Origin: a virus
Taxonomy: Duplodnaviria; Caudoviricetes
Direction: 5' to 3' (one strand)
DNA: 64,000 bases
Virus record (IMG/VR): IMGVR_UViG_3300033067_002106
Span: 18,836-82,835 of that record
Below are positions 29,470-63,966 of this stretch, piece by piece. Positions within the stretch are counted from its first letter, which is position 1; every line of letters starts with the position of its first letter. The notes below the pieces were generated by a model. It did not search any database. It was not told the origin of the DNA and worked only from the letters and a program-made list of their open reading frames with translations. The translations under genes were made by a program, and so were the position numbers.

Positions 29470-29515
29470 CAAAGTAATCGAAAGAACAGTACTTAACGAT
29501 TAGATTACTAGACAG

Positions 29516-29602: not shown

Positions 29603-29611
29603 TGTCAACTT

Positions 29612-29697: not shown

Positions 29698-29709
29698 CCT
29701 TGACTTTAC

Positions 29710-29784
29710 GGTGGCGTTAGCTCAGTTGGTTAGAGCATCAGATTGTGATTCTGAGGGTCGTGGGTTCGAACCCCATACGCCACC
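29710..29784 (+). tRNA. tRNA-His(GTG)
   Basis: G-1:C73; ttGTGat. Confidence 0.92.
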
Positions 29785-29793
29785 CCCTGATAT

Positions 29794-29869
29794 TGTTAAG
29801 TGGTGTAATTGTAGATAGCATGACTCTAGCGCAGGGGTAGGAAGTTGGTGCAACTCCAATACTTAACAG
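29794..29869 (+). pseudogene. Degenerate tRNA-like element
   Basis: tgttaag/cttaaca acceptor; T arm; irregular anticodon loop. Confidence 0.5.
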
Positions 29870-29875
29870 CAACAT

Positions 29876-29966
29876 GGTGTGTGTGGTCCGAGTGGTCGAA
29901 GGAATCTGCCTGTGAAGCAGAATGAGATTATATCAAACGTCGTGGGTTCAAATCCCATCATGCACC
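29876..29966 (+). tRNA. tRNA-His(GTG) with 20-nt variable region
   Basis: G-1:C73; ctGTGaa. Confidence 0.75.
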
Positions 29967-30011
29967 CTTTAAGATGGTTGTGAGTATACTGTAATCAGAA
30001 ACTCTCAAATC

Positions 30012-30089
30012 GGTGTCGTAACCCCCCTGTCTGATACACAGGACAAAGGTAATTGGTGGGAGATATGGGTTCGAGCCCCATCGACACCA
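30012..30089 (+). tRNA. D-arm-less tRNA-Ile(GAT)-like
   Basis: Perfect acceptor, anticodon and T stems; no D stem; GTAATTGG in variable region. Confidence 0.65.
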
Positions 30090-30096
30090 CAGACAA

Positions 30097-30179
30097 CCTG
30101 ACGAGGCAGACTGGTTGATGCACCACCCTGATAAGGTGGGTTCGCAAGAACAAGGTGGGTTCGATTCTCACCGTCAGGA
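30097..30179 (+). tRNA. tRNA-Ile(GAT) with variable arm
   Basis: ctGATaa; gttc-gcaa-gaac arm. Confidence 0.8.
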
Positions 30180-30181
30180 CA

Positions 30182-30379
30182 ATGAAAATTGAAAAAGCAA
30201 TTGAGGTATTACATGATGTTGGTGTTGCTAAAAGTACAACATTAGAGATTATGTATGAATTATTAGAAAATGCAAATAAATATGCCAATAATTCAGAAGC
30301 AATCGAAAAGCTTTTAAAAGAAAAGCTTTCAATTGAAGAATTCATCTCGGTTAAAAATCAATTTATTTTGGACGCTTAG
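30182..30379 (+). CDS. Hypothetical protein
   Basis: 65-aa ORF; stop overlaps next tRNA. Confidence 0.55.
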   Translation: MKIEKAIEVLHDVGVAKSTTLEIMYELLENANKYANNSEAIEKLLKEKLSIEEFISVKNQFILDA

Positions 30380-30443
30380 CTCAGTTGGTTAGAGCAGCTG
30401 ACTCATAATCAGCGGGTCACTGGTTCGAACCCAGTAGTGTCCA
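30370..30443 (+). tRNA. tRNA-Ile2/Met(CAT)
   Basis: Cloverleaf; ctCATaa; Ile2-like context. Confidence 0.9.
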
Positions 30444-30444
30444 C

Positions 30445-30641
30445 GGGGATGGGGAGGTTAAATCTCGCTCGGACAAAACTGAGTAACCCTTAATCGGGGT
30501 TCGATTTTATCAAAGACCATCAAAGAGACCTGAAAAAAGAGTAACTAACACAACGGGATGTTGTTGTAGAAGAAAATTTTCTAACATTGGAGATGAAAAC
30601 TGGATAAATAGAATAAGCGGGTGAAATTCCCGTCGTCGCCA
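30445..30641 (+). ncRNA. Candidate 197-nt RNA with tRNA-like ends
   Basis: ggggatg/cgtcgcc (6 of 7 paired); gcggg-tgaaatt-cccgt T-like arm; flush between two tRNAs. Confidence 0.4.
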
Positions 30642-30646
30642 AACCT

Positions 30647-30737
30647 TGGGTAGTAGCAGCGGTGCCTTATACGCATCACACTTGTAACTGGCATCTTGAG
30701 ATAACTTCAAATGTGGGTTCGAACCCCATCTACCCAA
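30647..30737 (+). tRNA. D-arm-less tRNA-Ile(TAT)-like
   Basis: Acceptor, anticodon (ctTATac) and T stems; GTAACTGG in variable region. Confidence 0.65.
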
Positions 30738-30803
30738 CAATTGGAATCATATTCTTGTTGCCCCGTTTGGGATATGATATTGAAATTGAGTTACGGGGCC
30801 CTT

Positions 30804-30888
30804 GGATGGGTTGCTTTAGAGGCCGAAAAGTCTAGATTGTTAATCTAGTGTCGCAAGACCACCGTGGGTTCGACTCCCACCCCATCCT
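30804..30888 (+). tRNA. tRNA-Asn(GTT) with variable arm
   Basis: ttGTTaa; gtc-gcaa-gac arm; U73. Confidence 0.7.
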
Positions 30889-30895
30889 CAAATAT

Positions 30896-30969
30896 TCTGA
30901 TGTAGCTCAGTTGGTTAGAGCATCTGACTGTTAATCAGAGGGTCGTAGGTTCGAGTCCCACCATCAGAG
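30896..30969 (+). tRNA. tRNA-Asn(GTT)
   Basis: Canonical cloverleaf; G73. Confidence 0.92.
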
Positions 30970-30983
30970 CAAATAAATGTGTT

Positions 30984-31220
30984 ATGGAACTTAAAAGCAT
31001 TTCAAAAGAGGTTATCGATGAGTACAAAGAATTTATTCTTGAGCGATTAACTATCCGTCCAACTGATACTCCAACAGCTATTGCTAGCAGAGCATGGTAT
31101 CGTGGGTTTAAGGATTTCAGGTTTGATGATGCTAGGGCTTTGGCTGAGAAGGTTAAACAGATTTATTTGACACATATCAACAAGAAAACTATTTCTGAAG
31201 TTAGAGATATGATTTTTTAA
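30984..31220 (+). CDS. Hypothetical protein
   Basis: 78-aa ORF. Confidence 0.6.
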   Translation: MELKSISKEVIDEYKEFILERLTIRPTDTPTAIASRAWYRGFKDFRFDDARALAEKVKQIYLTHINKKTISEVRDMIF

Positions 31221-31221
31221 C

Positions 31222-31296
31222 GGACAATTAGCTATTAATTGGTAGAGCGAGTGGTTGTTAGCCACAGGGTTGTGGGTTCGAATCCTACATTGTCCG
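31222..31296 (+). tRNA. tRNA-Asn(GTT)
   Basis: Cloverleaf; ttGTTag. Confidence 0.8.
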
Positions 31297-31387
31297 CTTT
31301 TTTAGTTCTTTGAAATTATTTTTGTTTTAAAGTTTAAACTTTGGGTATAGTTTCGGTATTTATTAAATGATAACTTTCGTTTAATAA

Positions 31388-32461
31388 ATGCAACAAACAA
31401 TGCCACACAACACCAAGGTACTTTTTATCCTAAAAAGAAGACAAGATTATAATGGAGACAAACATTCACATGCTAATTTAAGCACTGGGTTATATAATTC
31501 AGCGGCTTTTATGAATGATATGTTAAATGAACAAGGTATTCGTTCTAAGATTGCTGTTGTTAGAGATAACAATGATATCGATAGACAAGTCACCAAGTTC
31601 AAACCAAAATATGTTATTATTGAAGCACTTTGGGTTGTTCCAAGTAAATTCAGTGTTTTATGTAAGCTACACCCTAATGTAAAATGGATTATTCGTTTAC
31701 ATAGTGAAATTCCATTCTTAGCAAATGAGGGAATAGCAATGGATTGGTTGGGTGATTATCCAGCTTTTCATAATCTTATTATAGCAGCAAACGCTCCGAG
31801 AGCATTAAAAGACCTTAGATTTTATTTAAAGACAAAGTATCATTGGAACGATGAAAAACTTGAGAAGAAAGTCATCTATCTTCCAAATTATTATCCAGAT
31901 ACTTACAAACGTAAGGAATTTGATGATACCAAATGTCACATTGACATTGGTTGTTTTGGTGCAATCAGACCAATGAAAAATCATTTAACTCAAGCAATTG
32001 CGGCAATAAAGTTTGCTGAATCTATTGGTAAAAAATTAAGATTTCATATCAATGCTGGAAGGATTGAACAAAAGGGTGATAGTGTATTGAATAATCTTAA
32101 AGCTTTATTTACACAATTAAAGTCTTCTGGTCATCAGTTGATTGACCATGGTTGGATGCCTAGGGAAGAATTCTTAAAGGTGTGTGGAAAAATGGATATT
32201 GGAATGCAAGTTTCAATGTCAGAAACCTTTAATATTGTTGGTGCTGATTTGATGGGCCAAGGTGTTCCTCTTGTCGGTTCAAATGAAATTCCTTGGATGT
32301 GTAAGTTTTTTACTGCTAAACCAACAGATACTGAAAGCATTTATAGAAAACTAAGATTAACTCATTGTTTTTCTAAAGTGAATGTTTTCTTAAATCAATT
32401 ATTCCTGAGAAAATATACAAATAAAACAAGGAAGATATGGGTTAAATACTTCGAAGATTAA
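31388..32461 (+). CDS. Probable GT-B glycosyltransferase
   Basis: IGCFGAIRPMKN; DIGMQVSMSETFNIVGAD..GQGVP. Confidence 0.6.
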   Translation: MQQTMPHNTKVLFILKRRQDYNGDKHSHANLSTGLYNSAAFMNDMLNEQGIRSKIAVVRDNNDIDRQVTKFKPKYVIIEALWVVPSKFSVLCKLHPNVKWIIRLHSEIPFLANEGIAMDWLGDYPAFHNLIIAANAPRALKDLRFYLKTKYHWNDEKLEKKVIYLPNYYPDTYKRKEFDDTKCHIDIGCFGAIRPMKNHLTQAIAAIKFAESIGKKLRFHINAGRIEQKGDSVLNNLKALFTQLKSSGHQLIDHGWMPREEFLKVCGKMDIGMQVSMSETFNIVGADLMGQGVPLVGSNEIPWMCKFFTAKPTDTESIYRKLRLTHCFSKVNVFLNQLFLRKYTNKTRKIWVKYFED

Positions 32462-32478
32462 ATTAAAACAAAGGTAAC

Positions 32479-32757
32479 ATGAAAAAAAGAAACAAATTAA
32501 CTATTAATATTACACAATGGAAAAATGGTGTGCTAGACGTATCTGATATTGAATGTGATTCACTAGATGAAGCAAAAGGATTTATCAGGGGTCTTAAGGG
32601 TAAAATGAAGGTTAAGGTTTATGATGGAAATAAAAGAGTTCAACATTCAGAGGACATAGATAATGAAGATAAACATGAACACCACGAACACCACGAACAT
32701 CATGGACATCATGAACACCATGGTCATCATGAGCATGATAACGATTCATATTGTTAA
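32479..32757 (+). CDS. Small protein with His-rich (HE/HG)n tail
   Basis: HEHHEHHEHHGHHEHHGHHEH. Confidence 0.7.
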   Translation: MKKRNKLTINITQWKNGVLDVSDIECDSLDEAKGFIRGLKGKMKVKVYDGNKRVQHSEDIDNEDKHEHHEHHEHHGHHEHHGHHEHDNDSYC

Positions 32758-32869
32758 TATTAGCTTTCTATTTTTCATTTAAATGCCGATGTATCCAAGT
32801 GGCCAAAGCTATATTTGGATAAAATTGGAGTGTATTTCCCTGTGACAATTAGCACAAACTAAAATACAT

Positions 32870-32939
32870 TGCATGAGTTATTGGAATACAGCCATCTCTC
32901 ATAAGGAAGGCCAAGGCGGTTCGACTCCGCTTCATGCAA
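32870..32939 (+). tRNA. Degenerate tRNA-Met(CAT)
   Basis: Good acceptor and T arm; weak D and anticodon stems. Confidence 0.55.
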
Positions 32940-32945
32940 CAACAA

Positions 32946-33024
32946 GCCGATGTAACCAGTTCTGTCTTCGAAACAGTTATCTGTAATGGAGTTGCAAATG
33001 TGGGTTCGAATCCCTCCATCGGTT
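32946..33024 (+). tRNA. D-arm-less tRNA-Arg(TCG)-like
   Basis: ctTCGaa; no D stem; GTAATGG in variable region. Confidence 0.65.
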
Positions 33025-33077
33025 CAACAACACTTATAGAGCCTCTCAATGATGCGCAACTTCTATAGGTTTTATTT

Positions 33078-33153
33078 GGCTTTATAGTTTAACTGGATAA
33101 AACACCTGATTGCGAATCAGGAGACGTGATGGGTTCGAATCCCTCTAAGGTCA
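33078..33153 (+). tRNA. tRNA-Arg(GCG)
   Basis: cctga-ttGCGaa-tcagg; bulged T stem. Confidence 0.8.
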
Positions 33154-33208
33154 CAAATTGTATTATGATTGTATTTTTAAAATATGAATGTGTTTATGTT
33201 GACCGACT

Positions 33209-33439
33209 ATGTGGGTCAACATCATACAACTTCGTGTAAACGAAAAGCAATCAAAAAAAATTGATAGAAGCAAGGTTGAGAAACATAGAAAACACCTTGA
33301 AATGGGCGGTGACATGTTTCCAATCGACGTTGTAAAAATCAATGAAGAAGAACACTGTATTTGCGGCAATGGCAGACACCGTTACTATGGTGCGTTGGAA
33401 GCCGGTGTTCAATTTATTGATGTCAATGTACTGAATTAA
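33209..33439 (+). CDS. ParB-like small protein
   Basis: PIDV...GNGRHRYYGA. Confidence 0.5.
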   Translation: MWVNIIQLRVNEKQSKKIDRSKVEKHRKHLEMGGDMFPIDVVKINEEEHCICGNGRHRYYGALEAGVQFIDVNVLN

Positions 33440-33440
33440 T

Positions 33441-33518
33441 GGTCTCGTAGTGTAACAGGATAACATAGACGTTTCCTAAACGGCCAGAGTAAGGGTTCGA
33501 ATCCCTTCGAGACTACCA
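33441..33518 (+). tRNA. tRNA-Arg(CCT)
   Basis: Cloverleaf with encoded CCA. Confidence 0.88.
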
Positions 33519-33523
33519 AATAT

Positions 33524-33612
33524 GCCCCAGTAACCGAGTCGGCCTTCTAAGCTGTTAATCGTAATTGGAGTTGAGATTGTATCAAACGCAGGTTCGAATC
33601 CTGTCTGGGGTT
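33524..33612 (+). tRNA. D-arm-less tRNA-Arg(TCT)-like
   Basis: ctTCTaa; GTAATTGG plus TGAGATTGTATCAAAC in variable region. Confidence 0.65.
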
Positions 33613-33618
33613 CAAGAT

Positions 33619-33694
33619 GGTTCCATAAGCTAACTGGATAAACTGGCCGCCTTCTAAGCGGCACTTATGGGTTCGAATCCCGTTGGAACTACCA
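33619..33694 (+). tRNA. tRNA-Arg(TCT)
   Basis: Cloverleaf with encoded CCA. Confidence 0.9.
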
Positions 33695-33762
33695 AATATT
33701 TCGTATGAATGTACCATACAGTATGGCATCCAGTACTAGGCAAAAACCCCTAGTCGGTAGCC

Positions 33763-34050
33763 ATGAACAAGAAAAGAAGACAAGAGCTTAAACAGCTTAA
33801 ATTTATTAATCGTATTAAACGATTTATTGCAAATGGTAAATATTATTTTACCAAGGATAGAGAACGGATTGATTCGCCAACCGTTCAAGATATAATCAAC
33901 GATGGTGGGTTTTTATGTTATAAAACAACATCAACACCATGTTCCTGTTATACGTGCTCTGGGGAATATAAATACCGTAGACATGAGCATAAAATAATAG
34001 AAAGAAAGTTGGTTCAAGAAGGATTGGAAGATTATTACAACCTAGATTAG
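33763..34050 (+). CDS. Hypothetical basic protein with Cys cluster
   Basis: TPCSCYTCS. Confidence 0.65.
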   Translation: MNKKRRQELKQLKFINRIKRFIANGKYYFTKDRERIDSPTVQDIINDGGFLCYKTTSTPCSCYTCSGEYKYRRHEHKIIERKLVQEGLEDYYNLD

Positions 34051-34062
34051 TCTAGGTATTTT

Positions 34063-34151
34063 GGAGGATAGGCAGATACGGTTTGCTGCGTTAGTTTGCT
34101 AAACTAATCTACCCCACAAGGGTAGTGAGGGTTCGAATCCCTTGTCCTCCG
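34063..34151 (+). tRNA. tRNA-Ser(GCT)
   Basis: Class II cloverleaf; ttGCTaa. Confidence 0.9.
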
Positions 34152-34209
34152 CTAAAGGCCACACATGTGTGGTCTTTTTTTGTTTTATACCATATTTATT
34201 ACTAAAAGT

Positions 34210-34599
34210 ATGGCATTCATTCCCAATCACTTACATTTGATAGTTAAGGGTAAAATCAACAACCCACCTAAAGAAGAAATCGACTTAAATAATTGGTTTA
34301 TAGAGCTGGTAAAGGGTGTCCGAATGGTAGTAGTGGCGGGTCCGACATCAGTTTACGTAAAAGATGAAGGGAATGAGGGGTTAACCGGAACGGTGACACT
34401 TGCCACATCTCATGCTTCAATTCATATTTGGGACAATACAATCCCATCTCTTTTTCAATTTGATATTTATTCGTGTTCATGTTTTACCGTTGAGGAGGTA
34501 TTACAACATTTAAACAAATTTGACCTAAGTGAATATGAGTACATATTTATTGATAGAAATAATGAAATAAAGATTATAGATACTGGGAAAAATCAGTGA
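34210..34599 (+). CDS. speD: S-adenosylmethionine decarboxylase proenzyme-like
   Basis: GLTGTVTLATSHASIHIW...FDIYSC. Confidence 0.75.
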   Translation: MAFIPNHLHLIVKGKINNPPKEEIDLNNWFIELVKGVRMVVVAGPTSVYVKDEGNEGLTGTVTLATSHASIHIWDNTIPSLFQFDIYSCSCFTVEEVLQHLNKFDLSEYEYIFIDRNNEIKIIDTGKNQ

Positions 34600-35165
34600 A
34601 AATTGGTGAAATATATAATGAGATTTTTGAAGAAAGCGGTGAAAGGGTTTTTTACCATGGTTCTCCATATCAGTTTGACAAATTTGATTTTGATAGAATA
34701 GGTAGTGGTGATGGGTTGGCTAAGTTTGGTTATGGGTTGTATTTTACTGATAATCCAGATTTAGCGATTTATTACGCAAAAGAGCTTTCAAAGGGTGAAC
34801 TAAAAAAAACAGGATTTAACTTATATACGGTTAAGCTTTACAATTTGGATGAATTTTATGTTTGGGAGGAAGAAACCCCGGAATTTGTTGCTCAGTGTGT
34901 TGTAAGAAAACTTTTAAAACTTGGTAAAACAAGTGATGCTGAATTGATAACTACAGAATATGAAGAGTATGGTAAATACTGGGAACTAAAAAACATGTAT
35001 TCAGTCTTAACTGATATTTTAGGAACTCAAAAAGAAACATCTGAATGGTTAACTATTTGTGGTGTTGGTGGGGTCATAAGTGATGCAATAACACATAGTG
35101 GTAAGATATATACCGTTTATGATGATTCATTAATAAAGATTGTCAACGTAGAAAATTTAAGATGA
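34596..35165 (+). CDS. ADP-ribosyltransferase-like (ART-PolyVal-type) protein
   Basis: FYHGSP..FDKF...GSGDG...FGYGLYFTD. Confidence 0.5.
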   Translation: MKIGEIYNEIFEESGERVFYHGSPYQFDKFDFDRIGSGDGLAKFGYGLYFTDNPDLAIYYAKELSKGELKKTGFNLYTVKLYNLDEFYVWEEETPEFVAQCVVRKLLKLGKTSDAELITTEYEEYGKYWELKNMYSVLTDILGTQKETSEWLTICGVGGVISDAITHSGKIYTVYDDSLIKIVNVENLR

Positions 35166-35797
35166 AAATAGGAAAACTATATGATGAGGTATTGGGTGAA
35201 GAGTATCCAAGTTCTTGGAACATAGAAGAATTTGCAAATTTAAAATCATTTAATCAAAGAAAAAACTATTGTGAACAAAATCTTCGACGTATTTCTTCTG
35301 GTAGTGGTCGAATTGTTTATCAAGTAGATAATGAAAAGGTATTAAAGTTAGCCAAGAATAAAAAAGGTGTTGCACAGAATGAAGTGGAAATTCAATATGG
35401 AAACGAGAGGTATTTTTCAAGCATTATTGGGCAAACTTATAACTCTGATGACAATGCTTTATGGGTTGAAATGGAATTGGCAAAAAGGGTAAGTCCAAAA
35501 CAATTTAAAAATATTGTTGGTGTTGATATCGACACATTTGGAGGATATATTCGAAATCAAGTGGCCGTCAATCGAGGAAGGCCAAGTTATTTTAGAATTG
35601 ACCCAGACATCAAGGAGCAATTAGATAATAATGAAATAGCCAATGATACAATTGATTTCGTTATGAATACCGATAGCGAAGCTGGTGATATAGGAAGATT
35701 AAGTACATGGGGATTGGTACATAGGGAAGGAAGTGATTCATTGGTAATTATTGATTATGGATTGACACAAGGTGTTTATACAACATATTATAGATAA
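35162..35797 (+). CDS. Atypical protein kinase-like protein
   Basis: SGSGRIVY...VLKLAK...QNEVE...IIDYGL. Confidence 0.55.
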   Translation: MKIGKLYDEVLGEEYPSSWNIEEFANLKSFNQRKNYCEQNLRRISSGSGRIVYQVDNEKVLKLAKNKKGVAQNEVEIQYGNERYFSSIIGQTYNSDDNALWVEMELAKRVSPKQFKNIVGVDIDTFGGYIRNQVAVNRGRPSYFRIDPDIKEQLDNNEIANDTIDFVMNTDSEAGDIGRLSTWGLVHREGSDSLVIIDYGLTQGVYTTYYR

Positions 35798-35843
35798 TAA
35801 ATAAACATGAAACATTCGTGTTTATAATAAAAAACAAAAAAAA

Positions 35844-36332
35844 ATGGACAACGTTACACAACAAAGAATTCAATTGTTACACCCAAGTCTAAGAGATGAA
35901 GTAACAAATTTAATTAATCAAGCTGATGCAAGCTTAACAAAGCATTCCCAAGTAAGAATTGTACAAGGGCTAAGAACAATCGCTGAGCAAGATGCGTTAT
36001 ACGCACAGGGAAGAACAGCACCCGGCCCTAAGGTCACCAAAGCCAAGGGTGGTCAATCATTCCATAATTATGGTGTTGCAATTGACTTTGCACTTCTTAT
36101 TGATGGTAAGGAAATATCTTGGGACACCAAAAAAGATTGGGATGGCGATAAGATAGCCGATTGGATGGAAGTAGTAAGCATTTTCCGTAAAGCTGGTTGG
36201 GCTTGGGGTGGTTCATTCACGTTCAAAGATAACCCACATTTTGAGAAACCATTTGGAAACACATGGCAACAACTTTTAGCCAAATATAAAGCGGGTAATT
36301 TTGTTCCCGGAACAAAATATGTGAATCTTTAA
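35844..36332 (+). CDS. M15-family L-Ala-D-Glu peptidase (endolysin)
   Basis: EQDALYAQGRT; SFHNYGVAID; D.PHFE. Confidence 0.88.
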   Translation: MDNVTQQRIQLLHPSLRDEVTNLINQADASLTKHSQVRIVQGLRTIAEQDALYAQGRTAPGPKVTKAKGGQSFHNYGVAIDFALLIDGKEISWDTKKDWDGDKIADWMEVVSIFRKAGWAWGGSFTFKDNPHFEKPFGNTWQQLLAKYKAGNFVPGTKYVNL

Positions 36333-36371
36333 AATAAATTTGGTTATATAAAGTTTTTAACTTACCTTTGC

Positions 36372-37304
36372 ATGAAGAACTATATTAGAAAACTATTAAA
36401 AGAGAATCTGATGGTAAATGCATTGGGTATTAAGGTTTCACGTCCAAACCAAGTATTGGTTATTATGAGGGGTATATCCGGTAGCGGTAAGTCCACAAAG
36501 GCTAAATCCATTGTGGGTGAAGGTGTTATACACTCAACAGATGCTTTGATTGAAGCAACTGGTGATTACAATGGTTTTTTTGCTGAGATGAACAAAACAA
36601 AAAACTTCATTGGGTTAAGCCGTATGCACTCAAAGAACTTAGCCAACGCAAAGAAATCAATGAATGAGGGTGTTTCACCTGTTGTTATTGATAACACAAA
36701 TTTGAAGGCAAATGAAGCTAAGGCTTATGTTAAATATGCTTTGGAATTGGGTTATGCTGATGACAATATCAAGATTATTGATGTTGGTACTGGTGGTTTA
36801 ACAGCTGAAGGGTTGGCTGCAAGAAACCAACATGGTGTTCCATTGGAAAAAATAGAACAAATGGTTAAGTCACATAAGAGTGTCGGACCACTCACACTTA
36901 AAAGGATATTGGAGTCCAAGGATATGTATCCAAACTCTGATATCCTTTATTCAGCGGTTGTTTTGGATGAAAAATCAAGAAGCAAACTACTTGCAGCGTA
37001 TGGTAAAAATATTCCTTCCGGTTGGGATGTAATTGCTCATCACATGACAATTGCTTTTGGCAAACCAGTAAAGAATGAAGAAGACTTGGGCAAAACCGTA
37101 TGTCTTAGAGTTACAAAGGTTGGCGCTAGCGATATGGCATATGCTGTTCAGGTTGAAGGATATCCATCAAACAACGCTATTCCACATATTACCTTGGCCA
37201 TCAATCCAGATGGTGGAAAAGCGATGATGTCTAACGACATAACTAATTGGATGTCAACGAAGGGTATTGAAGTTTGTGGTGTTGTGACAAATATCAAGAA
37301 ATAA
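36372..37304 (+). CDS. Polynucleotide kinase (AAA_33) plus 2H cyclic phosphodiesterase fusion
   Basis: GISGSGKST; DNTN; HMT and HIT 2H motifs. Confidence 0.75.
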   Translation: MKNYIRKLLKENLMVNALGIKVSRPNQVLVIMRGISGSGKSTKAKSIVGEGVIHSTDALIEATGDYNGFFAEMNKTKNFIGLSRMHSKNLANAKKSMNEGVSPVVIDNTNLKANEAKAYVKYALELGYADDNIKIIDVGTGGLTAEGLAARNQHGVPLEKIEQMVKSHKSVGPLTLKRILESKDMYPNSDILYSAVVLDEKSRSKLLAAYGKNIPSGWDVIAHHMTIAFGKPVKNEEDLGKTVCLRVTKVGASDMAYAVQVEGYPSNNAIPHITLAINPDGGKAMMSNDITNWMSTKGIEVCGVVTNIKK

Positions 37305-37350
37305 ATTTGTAAGGGGCGATTCTTTTACGTATATTTGCTAAAATTACTCT

Positions 37351-37719
37351 ATGAATAATGAAGCAAGAAGAATCGATTTAAGTACCAAACTTCGTCAGAT
37401 GGGGGACTCCCTAATGAACGAATCCAATGTTTCTGGTGATGAAAATCTCTTGATAACTGGAAATCTTATGGGCTTTATAAGTACTCTTATCCTTTTTGAT
37501 GAGGATATAAGAAGTTTTAGTTTATTAAGTGAAATGTTTTCAGCAAAAAGGGTTTTGGATTCAATGTTACATGGGATTCCTGATAATATATCTCCGGCAG
37601 TAGCTGCGCATATACAAGAATCTGCTGATAAACTTGAAGAAAAACTTGGTGTTAAAAAGAAAAGAGCCCCTAGGAAAAAAAAGAATGACAATTCTAAGGG
37701 TGAAGAACCAACACCTTAA
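37351..37719 (+). CDS. Hypothetical protein
   Basis: 122-aa ORF after promoter. Confidence 0.7.
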   Translation: MNNEARRIDLSTKLRQMGDSLMNESNVSGDENLLITGNLMGFISTLILFDEDIRSFSLLSEMFSAKRVLDSMLHGIPDNISPAVAAHIQESADKLEEKLGVKKKRAPRKKKNDNSKGEEPTP

Positions 37720-37745
37720 AATTTTTGTGGTTTAAAACCACAAAT

Positions 37746-37774
37746 GCATCAGTAGCTCAGTTGGATAGAGCACA
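37746..37774 (+). pseudogene. tRNA 5'-half remnant
   Basis: gcatcag-ta-gctc-agttggata-gagc; pairs with remnant at 38321-27. Confidence 0.75.
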
Positions 37775-37807
37775 TAATTAGTTCTTTGATATATTGGAAA
37801 GATTTAG

Positions 37808-37881
37808 GGTCTTGTAGCATAATTGGATAATTCAACTGCCTTCTAAGCAGTAGACTACAGGTTCGAATCCTGTCGGGACTA
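37808..37881 (+). tRNA. tRNA-Arg(TCT), cassette-borne
   Basis: actgc-ctTCTaa-gcagt; weak D stem. Confidence 0.8.
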
Positions 37882-38238
37882 CATTAAATGATGTCTAATT
37901 CTGTGGCAATTTGAGCACAGTAAAACACATTTATCTAACTCTTTTGTAATTTGATTCCACGGTCTTAAACGTAATCTATTCCAGTCAAAATCTTTCTCGG
38001 ATGGAGTAATATGATGAAAATCAAATATTACATAAGGCATTTCTGGGTAAGTTACCTGACAATCTACGCATGAACAACCCTTATATTCAATAGCTTTAAT
38101 TTTTTGGTTAATCCATCGTTGAATACAATATTTATTGTGACATTTCTTACATTTTGAAGCACCACTTTTTCTATCTTTTTGATGATAAAACTCAGATATT
38201 GATTTAGTTAAATTACAAACAGTACATATTTTCTCCAT
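37879..38238 (-). mobile_element. HNH homing endonuclease
   Basis: CTVC...CKKC; CVDC; FDFHH; KCVLLCSNCHR. Confidence 0.8.
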
Positions 38239-55916: not shown

Positions 55917-56408
55917 ATGAAAGATTTCATAAGAATGAGATTACATGAATGGGGTTTTGACGACATTGACCCAGAACTTATTATTAAAGCATATACAAGC
56001 AAAATTAATGGGTTATATGATAATCTTTTGGCGAAGGGTGCTAGAAATCCAAACTTTAGATTTGAGCTTAAGAGAGATGTTTTAAAAATCTCCTACGGCC
56101 AGCCAAATCGTTGTGAAACCAATGCATATAATTTTGTAAAGGAAAAGCTTCAAAATGGTGAAACTTCTTTTTATCCAGTTGGTGGATTTACTTTTCAGGG
56201 GCCTAATTTTTGGCCGTTGGAACATTGGTGGGTTTATGATAAACAAGCAAATAAGTTTTTAGAGGTTACACCACTAGAACCTGATGTCTTTCGTGCTTAT
56301 GCTGGAATAATAAACACCGATATCCAAGAAGAGATATTAAAGTCACAAAATGTGTTTGATATTGATTTTTTTAAAGGTGGAAATGTACAGAGAATATATT
56401 TTAAGTAA
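55917..56408 (+). CDS. Hypothetical protein
   Basis: C..NA...HWWVYD; follows ATATTTAT motif. Confidence 0.65.
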   Translation: MKDFIRMRLHEWGFDDIDPELIIKAYTSKINGLYDNLLAKGARNPNFRFELKRDVLKISYGQPNRCETNAYNFVKEKLQNGETSFYPVGGFTFQGPNFWPLEHWWVYDKQANKFLEVTPLEPDVFRAYAGIINTDIQEEILKSQNVFDIDFFKGGNVQRIYFK

Positions 56409-57007
56409 TGAAGAATTGGATTAAACAAATATTAAGAGAATCATTGAATGAAATGACCCCAATCAATAAGCCGGAGTTTGGTAGTGGAATGGACCACACC
56501 GTTTTTAAATCAAAACAACATCCAGATAGACTTTATAAAATAGGTCGAGAAAACAACATTAAAGTATGGGTACCAATATTTAAAGCATATCCGAAGATAT
56601 TTCCAAGAGTTTATCGTGTGTTCCCATTAACCAAAGACCCTTACTTTTGGGTGGCTGAAATTGAAAAATTGAATACGGATACAGCAAAAAAAGATTTCAA
56701 ATTGGCATCGGATTATCTAGAAGATTATACTGAACAAATTTTTAAATTTCCTATAAGATTAGCTAGAATTGATATTTTTGATAACGAATCAAATATTCCA
56801 TTTAGTGTTTTTATCATAAAATTTAAAAATTGGTTGCTAGATATACATAAAGACGAAAGAATAATTAAAAATATACTTATGTGGGTTAAAACGGTATATC
56901 AAATATATAAACTTTTAGACAAAAAATATCAATACGAAATTTATGATATACATTCAGGTAATGTTGCATATGATAATAATGGAAATATAAAGATAATTGA
57001 TATTTAA
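56408..57007 (+). CDS. Atypical kinase-like protein (paralog A)
   Basis: FGSG.DH; LYK; DIHSGNV; IIDI. Confidence 0.65.
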   Translation: MKNWIKQILRESLNEMTPINKPEFGSGMDHTVFKSKQHPDRLYKIGRENNIKVWVPIFKAYPKIFPRVYRVFPLTKDPYFWVAEIEKLNTDTAKKDFKLASDYLEDYTEQIFKFPIRLARIDIFDNESNIPFSVFIIKFKNWLLDIHKDERIIKNILMWVKTVYQIYKLLDKKYQYEIYDIHSGNVAYDNNGNIKIIDI

Positions 57008-57008
57008 G

Positions 57009-57575
57009 ATGAAGACATGGATTAAACAAATATTAAGAGAGAATTTAGAAGAAATAGCACCAAAACCAAAACCAGTATTTGGTAAGGGCAGCTTTCATAA
57101 GGTTTTCCCATCAAAACAACACCCTGACCGACTTTATAAGGTTGGAGAAAAAGATACAGTTGAAGAATGGCTATCAATATTCAAAGCGTACCCAAAATAT
57201 TTTCCAAAAATTTATAGAGAATTTCCGTATGCTAAGAACCCAACACTTATGGTTGTTGAAATTGAGAAAATAGATACAGTAAGAGCAGCAAATGAGTTAA
57301 ATAAAATCGATAATTTTTTATTTGATGTTCCAGACACAATAAATTGCGAATATCTTTCACTACACAAATTTTTTGATACTGAATGTATTGATAATGTAAT
57401 AGAAGCAGCTAAAAATGACGATGACCCTTATTTATTACCCATGATATATAAATGGGCTAAATTTCTTAGGACTGTATCTAAAATTGTTTATGATTATATG
57501 GGCCGTGATATAGATATTCATGTGGGAAACGTTGCCTATGATAATAAAGGGAATCTAAAAATGATTGATATTTAA
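57009..57575 (+). CDS. Atypical kinase-like protein (paralog B)
   Basis: FGKGSFH; LYK; DIHVGNV; MIDI. Confidence 0.65.
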   Translation: MKTWIKQILRENLEEIAPKPKPVFGKGSFHKVFPSKQHPDRLYKVGEKDTVEEWLSIFKAYPKYFPKIYREFPYAKNPTLMVVEIEKIDTVRAANELNKIDNFLFDVPDTINCEYLSLHKFFDTECIDNVIEAAKNDDDPYLLPMIYKWAKFLRTVSKIVYDYMGRDIDIHVGNVAYDNKGNLKMIDI

Positions 57576-57576
57576 G

Positions 57577-58044
57577 ATGAAGACTTGGATTAAAAAAATA
57601 TTAAGAGAAACACTAGGTGAAGCTATTTTTAGCCCTGAGAATGAATTATTCTCAGCATATAATGGTCGATACCTGTTTGATGTTGATAAAGCATATTCTC
57701 TTATTAAAAGCGGAGGAGTTAAATCACAAATCAAAACATACTCTCCAACGTTTTTAAAGCAATTCTCACACCCAGAATTTTCAGCTGTAGACAACACCAA
57801 GCTTGATAGACTTAAGGGCTCCTTGGACCTTAAAAACCCTCTTGGGATACTTGTAAATTTTATGAACCCAGATGATGGAAAAACTGAATGGATTTTGATT
57901 GATGGGAATCACAGAGTCCGGGTTGCAGCTGAGAATAATGTGAATGGTTCGCTTTATGTTATTCAAGACCCAAATGATGTTGGTAAATTCATGAAAACAA
58001 ATACCCAAAAGCCCCACCAACTTTTCCCTGATGAAGATTTTTAA
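57577..58044 (+). CDS. ParB/Srx-like domain protein
   Basis: LIDGNHRV. Confidence 0.6.
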   Translation: MKTWIKKILRETLGEAIFSPENELFSAYNGRYLFDVDKAYSLIKSGGVKSQIKTYSPTFLKQFSHPEFSAVDNTKLDRLKGSLDLKNPLGILVNFMNPDDGKTEWILIDGNHRVRVAAENNVNGSLYVIQDPNDVGKFMKTNTQKPHQLFPDEDF

Positions 58045-58095
58045 AAAAAAGTAAGAAAAAACTTGTTTATTTGAGAAAGTTTCGTATATTTGCAT
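58045..58095 (+). promoter_or_regulatory. Conserved tRNA-operon promoter, copy 2
   Basis: aaaaaacttgtttatttg...gtatatttgca. Confidence 0.8.
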
Positions 58096-58110
58096 ATATT
58101 TATTAAAACA

Positions 58111-58191
58111 ATGAAAAAGATGAGTAACATATTGGTCCTTTGTTTATGTGTGCTAGTGCTTACTAGTACGGCTGGGATATTTATGTTATAA
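58111..58191 (+). CDS. Leader peptide MKKMSNILVLCLCVLVLTSTAGIFML
   Basis: LVLCLCVLVL core; antiterminator ggctggg 58170-76. Confidence 0.85.
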   Translation: MKKMSNILVLCLCVLVLTSTAGIFML

Positions 58192-58212
58192 CATCACTGA
58201 AATATAGCATTC

Positions 58213-58241
58213 AAACCCAGCCATTTAGGTTGGGTTTTTTT
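58213..58241 (+). terminator. Attenuator terminator
   Basis: aaacccagcc-attta-ggttgggttt plus T run, directly before tRNA-Cys. Confidence 0.85.
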
Positions 58242-58243
58242 AT

Positions 58244-58327
58244 GTCTACGTGGTCGAGTGGTCGATGGCAGCGGTCTGCAAAACCGCAAGGGAAACCTCA
58301 TCGTTGGTTCAAATCCAACCGTAGATT
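58244..58327 (+). tRNA. tRNA-Cys(GCA) with long variable region
   Basis: ctGCAaa; U73. Confidence 0.8.
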
Positions 58328-58333
58328 CAAGAC

Positions 58334-58404
58334 GCATCTGTGGCCGAGTGGTTAGGCTCAGGTCTGCAAAACCTGCTACAACAGTTCGAACCTGTTCGGA
58401 TGCT
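58334..58404 (+). tRNA. tRNA-Cys(GCA)
   Basis: Canonical; U73. Confidence 0.92.
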
Positions 58405-58453
58405 CCGAGTAGTCGTTTTTGTACTTTCAGCATATTTATTATAAAAGATAGAT

Positions 58454-59092
58454 ATGCCAAGAAAAGAAAAGGAGTATCACTTCATTTACAAAACGACCAA
58501 CTTACTTAGTGGTAAGTATTATATCGGAATGCATAGCACAGATAACCTTGAAGATGGTTATATGGGTAGCGGAAAACGACTTAGATATTCGTTGAATAAG
58601 TACGGTAAAGAAAACCATAAGGTGGAAATATTAGAGTTCTTTGATTCAAGAGAAGCCTTAGTTGAAAGAGAGAAATGGATTGTTTCTTTAAACGAGATTG
58701 CGAAAGAAGAGTGTATGAATTTAGTTGTTGGTGGTCAAGGTGGTTTTATTAGTTTAGAAGGTGCAAAGAAGGGTGGTAGAATTGTTGGGTATAAAAATGG
58801 TAAAAAACATGCCTTACGATTAGAAACGGATTTGATTTATCGAAATAATTTTTTAAATAGAATGAAAGCCGCACATCAAAGCGGGAGAGTTAAATACAAA
58901 AGTTTCAAGGGTAAAACACATACTGATGAAGCGAAAGAAAAAATGAGGAATAAGAAGCTAGGAAAAGGACTAGGGAAGACTAATTCTCAGTATGGTACCT
59001 GTTGGATTAACAACGGTACGCAAGAGATAAAAATTAAAAAAGAAGACTTAGAGAATTGGTTAGAGAATTCATGGGTTAAGGGTAGAATATAA
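58454..59092 (+). mobile_element. GIY-YIG homing endonuclease (MPRK family, copy 2)
   Basis: Clear paralog of 16149. Confidence 0.85.
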
Positions 59093-59120
59093 TAATTTAA
59101 TTATTTAAAGTTCTAATTTT

Positions 59121-59378
59121 ATGGACAAAAATGAAGTGAAAAAAGATTTGTACAAGTCAAAGGTGAATGCTAAATTTGCATATTATTGCCATGGTAGTTT
59201 GTACTATAATGTTGAAGTGCTTGGTAGTATTTATCAATTTCCAATTGAAACATTGGAAGATGGTACCTTATCAAATGATTTGGGGACAACACCTTTCAAT
59301 GCTGAAATCAAAGCATCTGATTTAAACAGATGGATTGCAGAAGCGATTGATAAGGATGCATTTATCAAGATTGGTTAA
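59121..59378 (+). CDS. Hypothetical protein
   Basis: 85-aa ORF. Confidence 0.7.
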   Translation: MDKNEVKKDLYKSKVNAKFAYYCHGSLYYNVEVLGSIYQFPIETLEDGTLSNDLGTTPFNAEIKASDLNRWIAEAIDKDAFIKIG

Positions 59379-59380
59379 AC

Positions 59381-59465
59381 GGGAACATAGCTCAGTGGTC
59401 AAGAGCACTGCCCTTACAAGGCAGCGGCGAATAGTATAACGGGTGTTCGATTCACCCTGTTCCCA
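59381..59465 (+). tRNA. tRNA-Val(TAC) with long variable region
   Basis: ctgcc-ctTACaa-ggcag. Confidence 0.82.
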
Positions 59466-59473
59466 CAATAAGT

Positions 59474-59608
59474 TCTATAATGGTGAAAGTGGTAGACACA
59501 GCGGTCACGGGGTAAAGGAGTACGTATAGTTGTAAACGGAAACGCTCGACATAAAATCAGTCCCAACCCGCCTCAACTCTTGTATAGGTTCGAGTCCTAT
59601 TTATAGTT
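59474..59608 (+). ncRNA. Leu-like tRNA body with about 65-nt insert replacing the anticodon loop
   Basis: ctataa/ttatag acceptor; gtg..cac D stem; gcgg/ccgc stem; atagg-ttcgagt-cctat T arm. Confidence 0.6.
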
Positions 59609-59618
59609 CTTATTTCAA

Positions 59619-59690
59619 TGTCTCTTAGCTAAGTGGTATAGCGTCTCTTTGACATGGAGAAGGCCGACAGTTCGATTCTGTCAGAGACAA
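59619..59690 (+). tRNA. tRNA-Val(GAC)
   Basis: Cloverleaf; ttGACat. Confidence 0.88.
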
Positions 59691-59733
59691 CAATGAAAAA
59701 ACAACTAGATGCATATTAGGTAAAAAACCTAAT

Positions 59734-59955
59734 ATGTCAAAAAACAGAAACAGAGCCAAATTAAACAAGGCTCAAACAGGTAGAGAATACCACATTATGT
59801 TGTTAAACGATTTGTATCCCCCATACTGGGATGAAGGGGTTAACTTTCATCCGAAATACAGAAGAGGATACAAGGAATCGAAGAAACAAATAATACACTA
59901 TCAAGTACGAATGTATCATACTTGGAAGCATAACCGAAAAACTAAATGGAAATGA
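59734..59955 (+). CDS. Hypothetical basic protein
   Basis: 73-aa ORF. Confidence 0.6.
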   Translation: MSKNRNRAKLNKAQTGREYHIMLLNDLYPPYWDEGVNFHPKYRRGYKESKKQIIHYQVRMYHTWKHNRKTKWK

Positions 59956-60005
59956 AAAAAGAAACTGATGGTCTTTAAGGTTGCTCAAATGTAACCCCAA
60001 AAGAC

Positions 60006-60302
60006 ATGAGAGAATTTCAAGAACTCAGAAAAACAACAAACAGGTCAGTTTATAATAAACTGTACAAAAAAGAACTTGACAAACGTGGTAAAATCAAATG
60101 CTCACTTGATGGTTACCACAGAGGTGAAAATGATGACAGCAAATATTATGGCGTATCTTGGATGGAAGCGTCTCAAGACCCAAAACCAAGATACCCTTCA
60201 TGGAAGCTGACATCAAAGAACCGGAAACAATGGATGAAAAAACGTTTGAAGATTAGAAAGAGAAGCTTCAAATGTTGGCACCAAGTGAAGATAACTTGGT
60301 AA
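60006..60302 (+). CDS. Hypothetical basic protein
   Basis: 98-aa ORF. Confidence 0.6.
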   Translation: MREFQELRKTTNRSVYNKLYKKELDKRGKIKCSLDGYHRGENDDSKYYGVSWMEASQDPKPRYPSWKLTSKNRKQWMKKRLKIRKRSFKCWHQVKITW

Positions 60303-60304
60303 AT

Positions 60305-60390
60305 GGCCGAGTGGTGGAATTGGTAGACACGCAGGTCTTAAAAACCTGTGGTCCGTAAGGGCCGTGTGGGTTCGAGTCCCATCTTGGCTA
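60305..60390 (+). tRNA. tRNA-Leu(TAA)
   Basis: Class II cloverleaf. Confidence 0.92.
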
Positions 60391-60462
60391 CAGAAATCTG
60401 TCGGAATGATATATGCCGTAAGCCTTGAGGCAAAGTTGACAGCTTGGAACAGACAAGCAAAT

Positions 60463-60550
60463 GGCCTTGTGATGGAACTGGCAGACAACTCAGACTCAGA
60501 ATCTGGGGCGAAATAACAGTAGCGTGAGGGTTCGAATCCCTCCAAGGTCA
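60463..60550 (+). tRNA. tRNA-Leu(CAG)
   Basis: Class II cloverleaf. Confidence 0.88.
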
Positions 60551-60554
60551 CAAT

Positions 60555-60731
60555 ATGAGAAAGAAAATTTTAAGTACGGAAGAGCGAATTAAACACTCTG
60601 AAGATTATATTGAATTTCTTAGAAAGAGATTAGCTTCTGAAAACTATAAGACTTCCGTATCAAAGGAAGAGTATGAAAAAACAAAAGCGAAGCTTGATAA
60701 AGAAAAAATAATCCTAAGGATGTTAAGGTAA
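60555..60731 (+). CDS. Hypothetical 58-aa protein
   Basis: Not in ORF track; open frame ATG to TAA. Confidence 0.55.
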   Translation: MRKKILSTEERIKHSEDYIEFLRKRLASENYKTSVSKEEYEKTKAKLDKEKIILRMLR

Positions 60732-60761
60732 TTTCAATTCTTTTTCGTATCTTTGTAGTAT

Positions 60762-60843
60762 GGCCCTATGGTGGAATTGGTAGACACGCTTGCCTTAGGA
60801 GCAAGTGCCGAGAGGCGTGGGGGTTCGAATCCCTCTAGGGTCA
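60762..60843 (+). tRNA. tRNA-Leu(TAG)
   Basis: Class II cloverleaf. Confidence 0.92.
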
Positions 60844-60984
60844 CAAGACAATATTTCTGGTAAGAGTTTATTGTGAAGCTTCAATGTCTAAAGATATTCT
60901 TATCTATATAGACACTAACTTTTACTCGTTTGCGGATAATGCTCATGACATAGGCCGCTCACCCAGTACGAGAATCTGGAATTT

Positions 60985-61010
60985 GGCCGTGTGGTGGAAT
61001 TGGTAGACAG
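60985..61010 (+). pseudogene. tRNA-Leu 5'-half remnant
   Basis: ggccgtg-tg-gtggaattggtagaca, then the sequence breaks off. Confidence 0.75.
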
Positions 61011-61082
61011 GGGTATTTTATATAAAATTTAAAGTTCTTTAAAATATGGTGTTTTTTGCGAACCTATCACATATTTATTGAT

Positions 61083-61793
61083 ATGAAAACTAAAGATGAG
61101 TATCAAAAAGTATGCGAATTGTTTGGGCAAGGTATTAAAAAATCTAAAATCGCCGAAATAATGGGTTTAGATAGGGGAACCGTTAGACGCTGGATAACAA
61201 CAGGGTTTACTGGTAAATCATCTAATGATATTATAGAATCATTAATCCTAAAAAAAGAAGATTATTCGTACATTTTAGGATTATATTTAGGTGATGGTTA
61301 TATTAACAAAACAGATAGAGCATATAGATTGAGAATATGTTTAGATTTAAAATATAATTTGTTGAATGATTATGCGTTTGAAAGATTAAAAAATCTGTTT
61401 CCAAATAACAGTGTTGGGAGTGTACACAGTTCTGGTTGTATCTATTTATATGTTTATAATAAACATTTACCAATAATGTTTCCACAACATGGTAGTGGAA
61501 GAAAACATTTAAGAAATATTATATTAGAAAATTGGCAGGTTAATATGATTGATTGGGTTGAATTGTTAAGAGGATTATTTCATTCGGACGGTTCATACTA
61601 TTTTGATAGGGGAAAAGATTATTTTAATTTTACTAATCTTTCGGATAATATTTTGAACTTATTTAAAATGTGTTGCCATAATCTTGGAATTCATTATACG
61701 CAAACTAATGATAAAACAATAAGAATTGGTAAACGACAAGACGTTAAAACAGTAAAAGAATTAATAGGTACAAAAATAAATATGGTCCTGTAG
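61083..61793 (+). mobile_element. LAGLIDADG-like homing endonuclease with N-terminal HTH
   Basis: SYILGLYLGDG; LRGLFHSDG. Confidence 0.8.
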
Positions 61794-61857
61794 CCCAACT
61801 GGGAGAGGCAATAGACTCAAAATCTATACAGTGTCGGTTCGAATCCGACTAGGACTA
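61784..61857 (+). tRNA. tRNA-Leu(CAA), short variable loop
   Basis: ataga-ctCAAaa-tctat; overlaps endonuclease stop codon. Confidence 0.85.
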
Positions 61858-61867
61858 CAAAACCCAA

Positions 61868-61941
61868 GAGAGGTAAATCCAAGGATGAGAATGTTATGGG
61901 GTATGGGTCCCTATTTCGATGGTGTAATCCTTGGGTCTCTC
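61868..61941 (+). ncRNA. Candidate 74-nt hairpin RNA
   Basis: gagag/ctctc and ccaaggat/atccttgg helices between tRNAs. Confidence 0.35.
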
Positions 61942-61945
61942 AAAT

Positions 61946-62027
61946 GGCTGAATGGTGGAATTGGTAGACACGCAGGTCTAAGAAGCCTGTGCCGCAAGGC
62001 GTGAGAGTTCGAGTCTCTCTTTGGTCA
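61946..62027 (+). tRNA. tRNA-Leu(AAG)
   Basis: caggt-ctAAGaa-gcctg; class II body. Confidence 0.88.
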
Positions 62028-62039
62028 CAAATATCTCTG

Positions 62040-63682: not shown

Positions 63683-63772
63683 ATGAGAAGCGTTAATTTT
63701 ATATTTGATTTTGCGATTGAAGCAGCCGAGGCCGATTTTAGCCACGGAAGGTCGAGTATTGCCCAAAATTAA
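63683..63772 (+). CDS. Leader peptide MRSVNFIFDFAIEAAEADFSHGRSSIAQN
   Basis: F/D/A/E-rich core; antiterminator aggtcgag 63749-56. Confidence 0.8.
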   Translation: MRSVNFIFDFAIEAAEADFSHGRSSIAQN

Positions 63773-63795
63773 CGTTTGAAAGATAACAAGTTTTG

Positions 63796-63825
63796 AAGCC
63801 CTCGACCTAAAATCGAGGGTTTTTT
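63796..63825 (+). terminator. Attenuator terminator
   Basis: aagccctcga-cctaaaa-tcgagggttt plus T run, directly before tRNA-Asp. Confidence 0.85.
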
Positions 63826-63829
63826 GTTT

Positions 63830-63917
63830 GGATATGGCGCATAGCGGTTGTTGCACCACCCTGTCACGGTGGTAAGTAGGTAAAACGAAAAAGCGGGTTC
63901 GATTCCCGTCATATCCG
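63830..63917 (+). tRNA. tRNA-Asp(GTC) with 20-nt variable region
   Basis: ccacc-ctGTCac-ggtgg; G73. Confidence 0.78.
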
Positions 63918-63966
63918 CCCTTGACTTTTTTGTACCTAGCACATATTTATATAGAAATGTATAGAT

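Follow-up and report, generated by a model that had tools for sequence, protein, structure and literature searches.

What decides when a phage transcribes its own transfer RNA (tRNA) genes? Both the regulation of these genes and the reason why some phages carry near-complete sets are under debate; suggested roles include codon compensation, the replacement of host tRNAs that have been degraded and evasion of anticodon nucleases (PMC10264068, PMC11555353). Here we consider a tRNA locus in a 64,000-nucleotide (nt) stretch of phage DNA (Duplodnaviria; Caudoviricetes; positions 18,836 to 82,835 of IMG/VR record IMGVR_UViG_3300033067_002106), referred to below as the window. At 58045-62027 a promoter is followed by a 26-codon open reading frame (ORF), an intrinsic terminator and nine tRNA genes (two for Cys, two for Val and five for Leu), and a run of ten codons in the ORF calls for the same three amino acids. 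We propose that this arrangement is probably a ribosome-mediated (leader-peptide) transcription attenuator which gates a phage tRNA operon, and that it is one of four in its lineage, a regulatory reading drawn from sequence comparison and RNA folding models.

Organization of the leader unit

A preliminary description of this DNA, made from the sequence alone, had listed the promoter, the ORF, the terminator (58213-58241) and the Cys, Val and Leu tRNA genes, had assigned a cognate downstream anticodon to each of leader codons 8-17, and had pointed out the exact complementarity between GGCTGGG at 58170-58176 and CCCAGCC at 58216-58222, within the 5' arm of the terminator. All of these elements were recovered in place (Table 1). 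The ten codons 8-17 specify L V L C L C V L V L, and under strict wobble rules all of them can be decoded by anticodons of the tRNA block downstream, including CTT by the AAG anticodon. The GGCTGGG/CCCAGCC duplex has an energy of -16 kcal/mol (z = -3.3 relative to dinucleotide-shuffled versions of the upstream segment), and its pairing is conserved in relatives with compensatory changes and has equivalents in three other classes of leader, as detailed below. The terminator is a 10-bp hairpin of -15.0 kcal/mol that ends 2 nt 5' of the first tRNA-Cys gene. ARAGORN and Rfam concur on all nine tRNAs, up to position 62028.

The promoter, with its -7 box TATATTTG, matches the Bacteroidota consensus (TTTG/TAnnTTTG, with the final G at -5; PMC6847099) and not that of sigma-70, and transcription is predicted to start near 58097, giving an A-rich 5' untranslated region of about 14 nt. 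This promoter box of about 45 nt is also found at 28222 and 63602 (three matches in a search of the window against 0.01 expected by chance), and a box of this kind stands upstream of all 33 non-redundant leaders described below. The start codons of these leaders have an A at -3 in 27 of 33 cases and the 15 nt 5' of the ATG are 64% A, a context which fits the host phylum (PMC6847099) and would allow translation of the leader.

These parts suggest the following mechanism. Transcription would start at the host-type (Bacteroidota) promoter and a ribosome would translate the short leader. With charged Leu, Val and Cys tRNAs plentiful, the ribosome would pass codons 8-17 and reach 58170-58176; this strand, once occupied, could not pair with the terminator 5' arm, the terminator would form and RNA polymerase would stop 2 nt before the first tRNA gene. 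Were any of those tRNAs scarce, the ribosome would stall within the block and leave 58170-58176 free to pair with 58216-58222 as the latter emerges, in which case no terminator would form and the tRNA genes would be transcribed. Since the product would be the very molecule that is sensed, each unit would regulate the supply of its own set of tRNAs by negative feedback, and four such leaders would jointly report on all 20 amino acids.

Four classes of leader in related phages

Relatives were gathered by protein-anchored and promoter-pattern searches of viral contigs and metagenomes, which yielded about 60 related loci from AT-rich phages, mostly from freshwater samples and including contigs of 160 and 343 kb. 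A stricter initial promoter pattern gave no matches in viral contigs, and GenBank phages matched the leader regions solely through their tRNA genes. All loci were scanned on both strands with an unbiased rule that called for an ATG-initiated ORF of 18-45 amino acids, a terminator of -11 kcal/mol or better and a tRNA gene within 400 nt; this returned four leader classes together with overlapping-frame artefacts, and nothing else.

The 33 non-redundant leaders comprise seven of class I (amino acids W, S, H, I, M, N and R), 14 of class II, to which the unit at 58045-62027 belongs (C, V and L), five of class III (D, F, E and A) and seven of class IV (P, Q, Y, T, G and K), and the four sets jointly partition all 20 amino acids. 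Three codon-matched units lie in the window, with leaders that start at 28469 (class I), 58111 (class II) and 63683 (class III). The fourth class is known from relatives, in which a leader rich in Lys, Thr, Tyr, Gln, Pro and Gly precedes tRNA genes for Pro, Gln, Tyr, Thr, Gly and Lys. The class III leader of the window also predicts the content of that part of its block which lies beyond the end of the contig, and the closest relative (L001) bears this out: its class III leader is followed by tRNA genes for Asp, Asp, Phe, Phe, Glu, Glu, Asp, Ala and Ala only.

Some loci have unusual arrangements. At positions 1105-1308 of L022 the promoter is separated from the class III leader ORF by a tRNA-Met gene, so that the transcript from which this leader would be translated would start with a tRNA. 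On L065, a short metagenome contig, two inverted class II-like leader copies (both strands, about 2750-2860) face pairs of tRNA-Cys genes, and one of the two copies has a disrupted block. A distant relative found through an ATP-grasp protein (L005/L006) proved to be an unrelated phage of high GC content whose tRNA block lacks a leader, and was set aside as uninformative.

Leaders match their own tRNA sets

Leader composition was assessed by whole-peptide binomial tails against the amino-acid background of the contig's long ORFs. Residues of the leader's own set account for 23/31 in class I (p = 6e-7), 11/25 in class II (p = 6e-4), 13/28 in class III (p = 3e-3) and 21/29 in class IV (p = 1e-5), while each class leader is depleted in the sets of the other three classes. 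The result was unchanged when units were scored against their own downstream tRNAs, wherever the block is complete. The score of the best 12-residue window was reached by only one of 707 random ORFs of 20-40 amino acids from these phages, a hydrophobic one, and no random ORF (0/707) reached the leader score for sets I, III or IV.

Alignments within classes show that the enriched block is contiguous, beginning around codons 2-8 and ending around codons 15-25 according to class and unit, that its residues are permuted among relatives and that the C-terminal tails vary freely. Replacements within the block stay in the set more often than expected from background (class I, 15/26; class II, 11/24; class III, 6/11; class IV, 12/21). 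Such a combination of in-set permutation and free tails would be expected of selection for set membership, that is, for which tRNAs are called, and not for the peptide product. Block codons match anticodons that are present in the operon and sample several synonymous codons. An Arg codon in the class III leader of L040, considered for covariation with a tRNA-Arg(UCG) gene in the block, was rejected because this codon is AGA, which is not read by UCG.

A conserved alternative pairing

Every unit has a hairpin followed by a T-run, with energies between -12 and -19 kcal/mol overall. In the 19 units first examined the energies lie between -14 and -19 kcal/mol and the T-run is found 44-56 nt past the leader stop codon; in classes II-IV only a few bases separate the end of the T-run from the first tRNA gene. 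In every class the strand just 3' of the codon block can pair with the terminator 5' arm, and this capacity survives changes in terminator sequence. This antiterminator strand of the leader is a third strand, independent of the terminator's two own arms.

In class II (13 distinct sequences) 86% of cells in the antiterminator helix are paired, against at most 49% when the strand is slid; the variable pairs are AU 7/GC 3/GU 3 and CG 11/AU 2, and the covariation score was exceeded by none of 500 shuffles. The corresponding helices are 96.8% paired in class I (AU 5/GC 2), 85% in class III (GC 3/AU 2 where the terminator has been replaced) and 91.9% in class IV. Over all classes the range is 85-97% against at most 52% when slid, with changes on both sides of the helix in each. 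The Gly codon within the class II antiterminator strand is GGG in 13 of 14 leaders (GGA in L065) despite the AT-rich genome, and its neighbours vary.

Ribosome position and the choice of structure

The effect of ribosome position was modelled by folding transcripts that were cut just before the terminator 3' arm, with 30 nt masked around the ribosomal A site; the footprint limits are assumed, and a 2-nt displacement of the leading edge changes the switch position by less than one codon. In this model the terminator 5' arm is paired upstream with a mean probability of 0.65 when the A site is in the block and of 0.34 when it is 2-6 codons past it (Wilcoxon p = 2e-10). The first collapse of the antiterminator falls at the last block codon, with a median offset of 0 and an offset within one codon in 27 of the 33 units. 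Thus, in the model, the block occupies the zone in which a stalled ribosome spares the antiterminator.

The preliminary description had likened the locus to trp/his-type attenuation, had looked to related phages for co-variation of leader codons and tRNA content, and had proposed that the tRNAs are transcribed when ribosomes stall. Co-variation is borne out by the comparison, in that homologous and non-homologous leaders alike track their downstream tRNAs in four classes, and transcription on stalling gains support as the best explanation of this comparative match, the conserved antiterminator and the modelled geometry. The likeness to trp and his stands in part: the geometry of ribosome and antiterminator fits, but no anti-antiterminator or pause hairpin is supported.

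Points against attenuation and alternative explanations

A number of observations weigh against an attenuator of this kind. The helices behind the pairing of 85-97% were derived from the same sequences in which they are counted, which inflates these counts, and only 14 of the 33 units have an antiterminator duplex more stable than shuffled controls, those of class I being weak. Pairing in a candidate pause or anti-antiterminator hairpin 5' of the antiterminator strand stands at 75%, which does not surpass that of shuffled or slid controls. At equilibrium, full-length transcripts of almost all units fold preferentially into the terminator, whatever the ribosome position, and folding of full-length leaders with a masked ribosome was dropped as a test of a kinetic switch for this reason; the window's class II unit alone switches at equilibrium, with the terminator at 29-68% when the ribosome is at codons 7-12. 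As the terminator is dominant at equilibrium, the switch would have to be kinetic and co-transcriptional, as for trp. The folding model also has the antiterminator form without any ribosome (about 0.6-0.75), so that untranslated leaders are predicted to read through by default, unlike those of trp and his.

The tRNA blocks themselves provide further points of this kind. Some block tRNAs are not mirrored in the leader, namely Ala(AGC) in class I of the window and Val(CAC), Ser(GGA) and Arg(UCG) in relatives. The class II 'operon' is broken up by a GIY-YIG gene, a LAGLIDADG gene and small ORFs, and some tRNAs inside blocks, here and in relatives, may have their own promoters; the possible -7 box TATCTTTG adjoins tRNA-Leu(UAG), so the last three Leu tRNAs could bypass the attenuator. 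Finally, extra tRNA would not relieve a true shortage of amino acids.

This last point bears on the signal. Attenuation may operate as described but respond to amino-acid starvation (uncharged tRNA) or to a general slowing of translation in the infected cell, in which case the units would be timers or stress switches and not tRNA homeostats. Stalling depends on charged tRNA, as is established for trp and his, so a leader cannot distinguish low tRNA from low charging, and the default-on state without ribosomes would also give readthrough when translation initiation drops. Set against this, the leaders list exactly the amino acids of their own block and use several isoacceptor codons, which would be pointless for general stress, and starvation for amino acids is not cured by more tRNA. 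We regard a stress switch as rather unlikely.

The output could differ instead. The leaders would then be codon-matched sensors that act on precursor stability, RNase processing or Rho access, with the hairpin serving mainly as an insulator or processing signal. The prevalence of the terminator at equilibrium in most units and the modest advantage of the antiterminator duplexes over shuffles, weak in class I, would suit such an output, as would the position of the hairpin next to the tRNA 5' end, where RNase P must cut. It accounts poorly for a pairing with the terminator arm that is conserved with compensatory changes in four classes having three unrelated terminator sequences, for a block that ends exactly where the ribosome would begin to occlude the antiterminator strand, and for the T-run, typical of intrinsic terminators, that all hairpins bear; we give an output of this sort only a slim chance.

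Coincidence between an ordinary small hydrophobic membrane or signal-like peptide at 58111-58191, whose Leu, Val and Cys residues would simply reflect its hydrophobic character, and an ordinary terminator is highly improbable: the class II leader alone resembles a transmembrane segment and the sole random ORF to match its score is also hydrophobic, but the leaders of the three sister classes are hydrophilic and fit their respective tRNA sets just as closely, the unbiased scan finds nothing else in the leader position, the GGG codon is kept in 13 of 14 class II leaders while neighbouring residues vary, and a small membrane or signal peptide gene was rejected as a candidate given that only class II is hydrophobic, that homologous positions are hydrophilic and tRNA-matched and that block residues are permuted.

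Other features of the window

The coordinates of the three leader units are collected in Table 1.

Table 1. Features of the class I, II and III leader units in the window
Feature	Position	Strand	Description
Promoter box	58057-58092	+	Bacteroidota type; TTTG near -33; -7 box TATATTTG at 58085-58092
Class II leader ORF	58111-58191	+	26 codons + TAA; ATG at 58111; A at -3; A-rich tract upstream
Sensing block (putative)	58132-58161	+	Codons 8-17; only Leu, Val and Cys, using four distinct Leu and two distinct Val codons
Antiterminator 5' strand (predicted)	58170-58176	+	GGCTGGG, codons 20-22
Class II terminator	58213-58241	+	5' arm 58213-58222, loop, 3' arm 58228-58237, T-run to 58241
tRNA-Cys(GCA) x2	58244-58406	+	ARAGORN and Rfam
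GIY-YIG (SegE-like) homing endonuclease gene	58454-59092	+	Within tRNA block; PF19835, E = 1.5e-5
tRNA-Val(UAC), tRNA-Val(GAC)	59381-59691	+	ARAGORN and Rfam
tRNA-Leu(UAA, CAG, UAG, CAA, AAG)	60305-62028	+	ARAGORN and Rfam
Possible internal -7 box TATCTTTG	60748-60755	+	About 6 nt 5' of tRNA-Leu(UAG), which starts at 60762
LAGLIDADG homing endonuclease gene	61056-61793	+	Within tRNA block; PF14528, E = 1.2e-7
Class I leader ORF	28469-28567	+	32 codons; 23/31 residues after Met1 in set of downstream tRNAs
Class I terminator	28588-28622	+	5' arm pairs with leader 28534-28543
Class I tRNA block	28813-37882	+	Trp, Ser, Ser, His, Ala, His, Ile, Met/Ile2, Asn x3, Arg x3, Ser, Arg
Class III leader ORF	63683-63772	+	29 codons; Phe/Asp/Glu/Ala block; antiterminator strand 63749-63756
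Class III terminator	63795-63829	+	63801-63808 pairs with 63749-63756
tRNA-Asp of class III unit	63830-63919	+	Remainder of block beyond contig end

Directly upstream of the class II unit lie three tandem paralogous ORFs with near-identical N-termini (56408-57007, 56997-57575 and 57565-58044); these had no family match, and the ORFs flanking the unit had no match in Pfam or PHROGs. Boxes of the -7 type stand a few bases 5' of single tRNA genes within blocks at 60748-60762 of the window, at 7914 of L001 and at 11243 of L024, which would place the predicted transcription start right at the 5' end of the mature tRNA.

Around the class I unit, an extra element of about 140 nt lies between the promoter box and the leader (28222-28425), with an 11-bp closing stem followed by a U-rich tract; it folds at -32.7 kcal/mol (z = -1.45) and had no match in Rfam. 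Relatives differ from this spaced arrangement in having the promoter directly before the leader. A 56-amino-acid ORF between the class I terminator and tRNA-Trp (28626-28796) is conserved in all class I relatives and had no Pfam or PHROGs match; as it sits behind the terminator it would be co-regulated with the tRNAs. At the contig end, 3' of the tRNA-Asp gene of the class III unit, the start of a GIY-YIG-like gene runs from 63966 on.

Not all tRNAs of the window appear to be under leader control, since a pair of tRNA-Met genes (17760-17971) is preceded by a Bacteroidota-type promoter and a leader region of about 360 nt (17368-17760) without a codon-matched ORF. This region had no Rfam match and may represent either another type of leader or a non-coding RNA. 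A transfer-messenger RNA (tmRNA) gene and two genes for tRNAs with CUA anticodons (amber suppressors) are located at 15748-16104, 19663-19735 and 22137-22208, none of them behind a leader unit.

Implications for phage translation

If attenuation of the tRNA operons is correct, this would be the first known circuit to control tRNA genes by the demand for their own products, and would extend a textbook mechanism to a new class of target; a full-text literature search, the coverage of which did not extend to most subscription journals, found no account of tRNA genes controlled by a leader peptide, whether in phages or in cells. The phage lineage would treat its tRNA pool as four separately controlled modules, and could answer the loss of host tRNAs codon by codon, whether through shutoff or through tRNA-cleaving defences; that host anticodon nucleases are the trigger is speculation. 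More broadly, we lean towards the view, with some reserve, that large phages rich in tRNA genes regulate their own decoding capacity in a closed loop, with the entire tRNA complement divided among a few operons, each placed behind a multi-codon 'test gene' that switches transcription on only when the codons of that operon are decoded slowly. On this view the same solution would occur in unrelated lineages (freshwater Bacteroidota phages and the phiCbK-like Caulobacter phages considered below), and would hence be a general and unrecognized principle of phage takeover of translation. The leaders would also be compact natural sensors of decoding capacity for chosen sets of codons, and as such parts for measuring tRNA supply in Bacteroidota.

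Comparison with known systems

The closest parallels in design are the enterobacterial attenuators of ilvGMEDA (Ile/Val/Leu) and thr (Thr/Ile) and the trpL, hisL, leuL and pheL leaders. These likewise have a translated leader with a codon block and a terminator before the regulated genes; an upstream strand likewise pairs with the terminator 5' arm, with ribosome position selecting the structure; and in ilv and thr several amino acids are likewise sensed by a single leader. These systems regulate biosynthetic enzymes, whereas the phage units would regulate the tRNAs themselves, so that the loop would close on tRNA supply. The phage units also differ in calling up to seven amino acids per leader and all 20 across four leaders, in the lack of a supported 1:2 (anti-antiterminator or pause) hairpin, from which readthrough without translation is predicted, and in their phage location, Bacteroidota promoters and initiation without a Shine-Dalgarno sequence. 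None of the Rfam leader families (Phe_leader, His_leader, Trp_leader, Leu_leader and Thr_leader) matched at gathering level, the best being Phe_leader at 26.3 bits against a cut-off of 55. In the window, gathering-level Rfam matches were to tRNA and tmRNA only, and permissive thresholds added only sub-threshold matches driven by the terminators.

T-box riboswitches likewise consist of a leader RNA in which a choice between terminator and antiterminator reports on the state of a specific tRNA. T-boxes, however, bind uncharged tRNA directly and without translation, and control synthetase and amino-acid genes in Firmicutes, whereas the phage units would be read by a translating ribosome; no T-box matched in 58040-58250 even at E-values up to 1, and none at gathering level in the window. 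In Escherichia coli, part of the translation machinery that handles the sensed amino acid is under leader-peptide attenuation, in the pheST (phenylalanyl-tRNA synthetase) attenuator with its pheM leader. The target there is a synthetase protein serving one amino acid rather than tRNA genes, and the system is not a phage one.

Among phages, a similar arrangement is found in phiCbK (JX100813). In one unit of this phage (L071, 2541-2678) 31 of 44 leader residues belong to the set of the downstream Pro, Lys, Leu, Ala and Ser tRNAs (p = 2e-6), with a terminator of -18.5 kcal/mol; a second unit is weak (12/31, p = 0.12 by a crude test). The design is the same, but the phage is of a different lineage with an alphaproteobacterial host (Caulobacter), a GC-rich genome and unrelated leader sequences, which suggests that the phiCbK units and those described here are of independent origin or share a very old ancestry.

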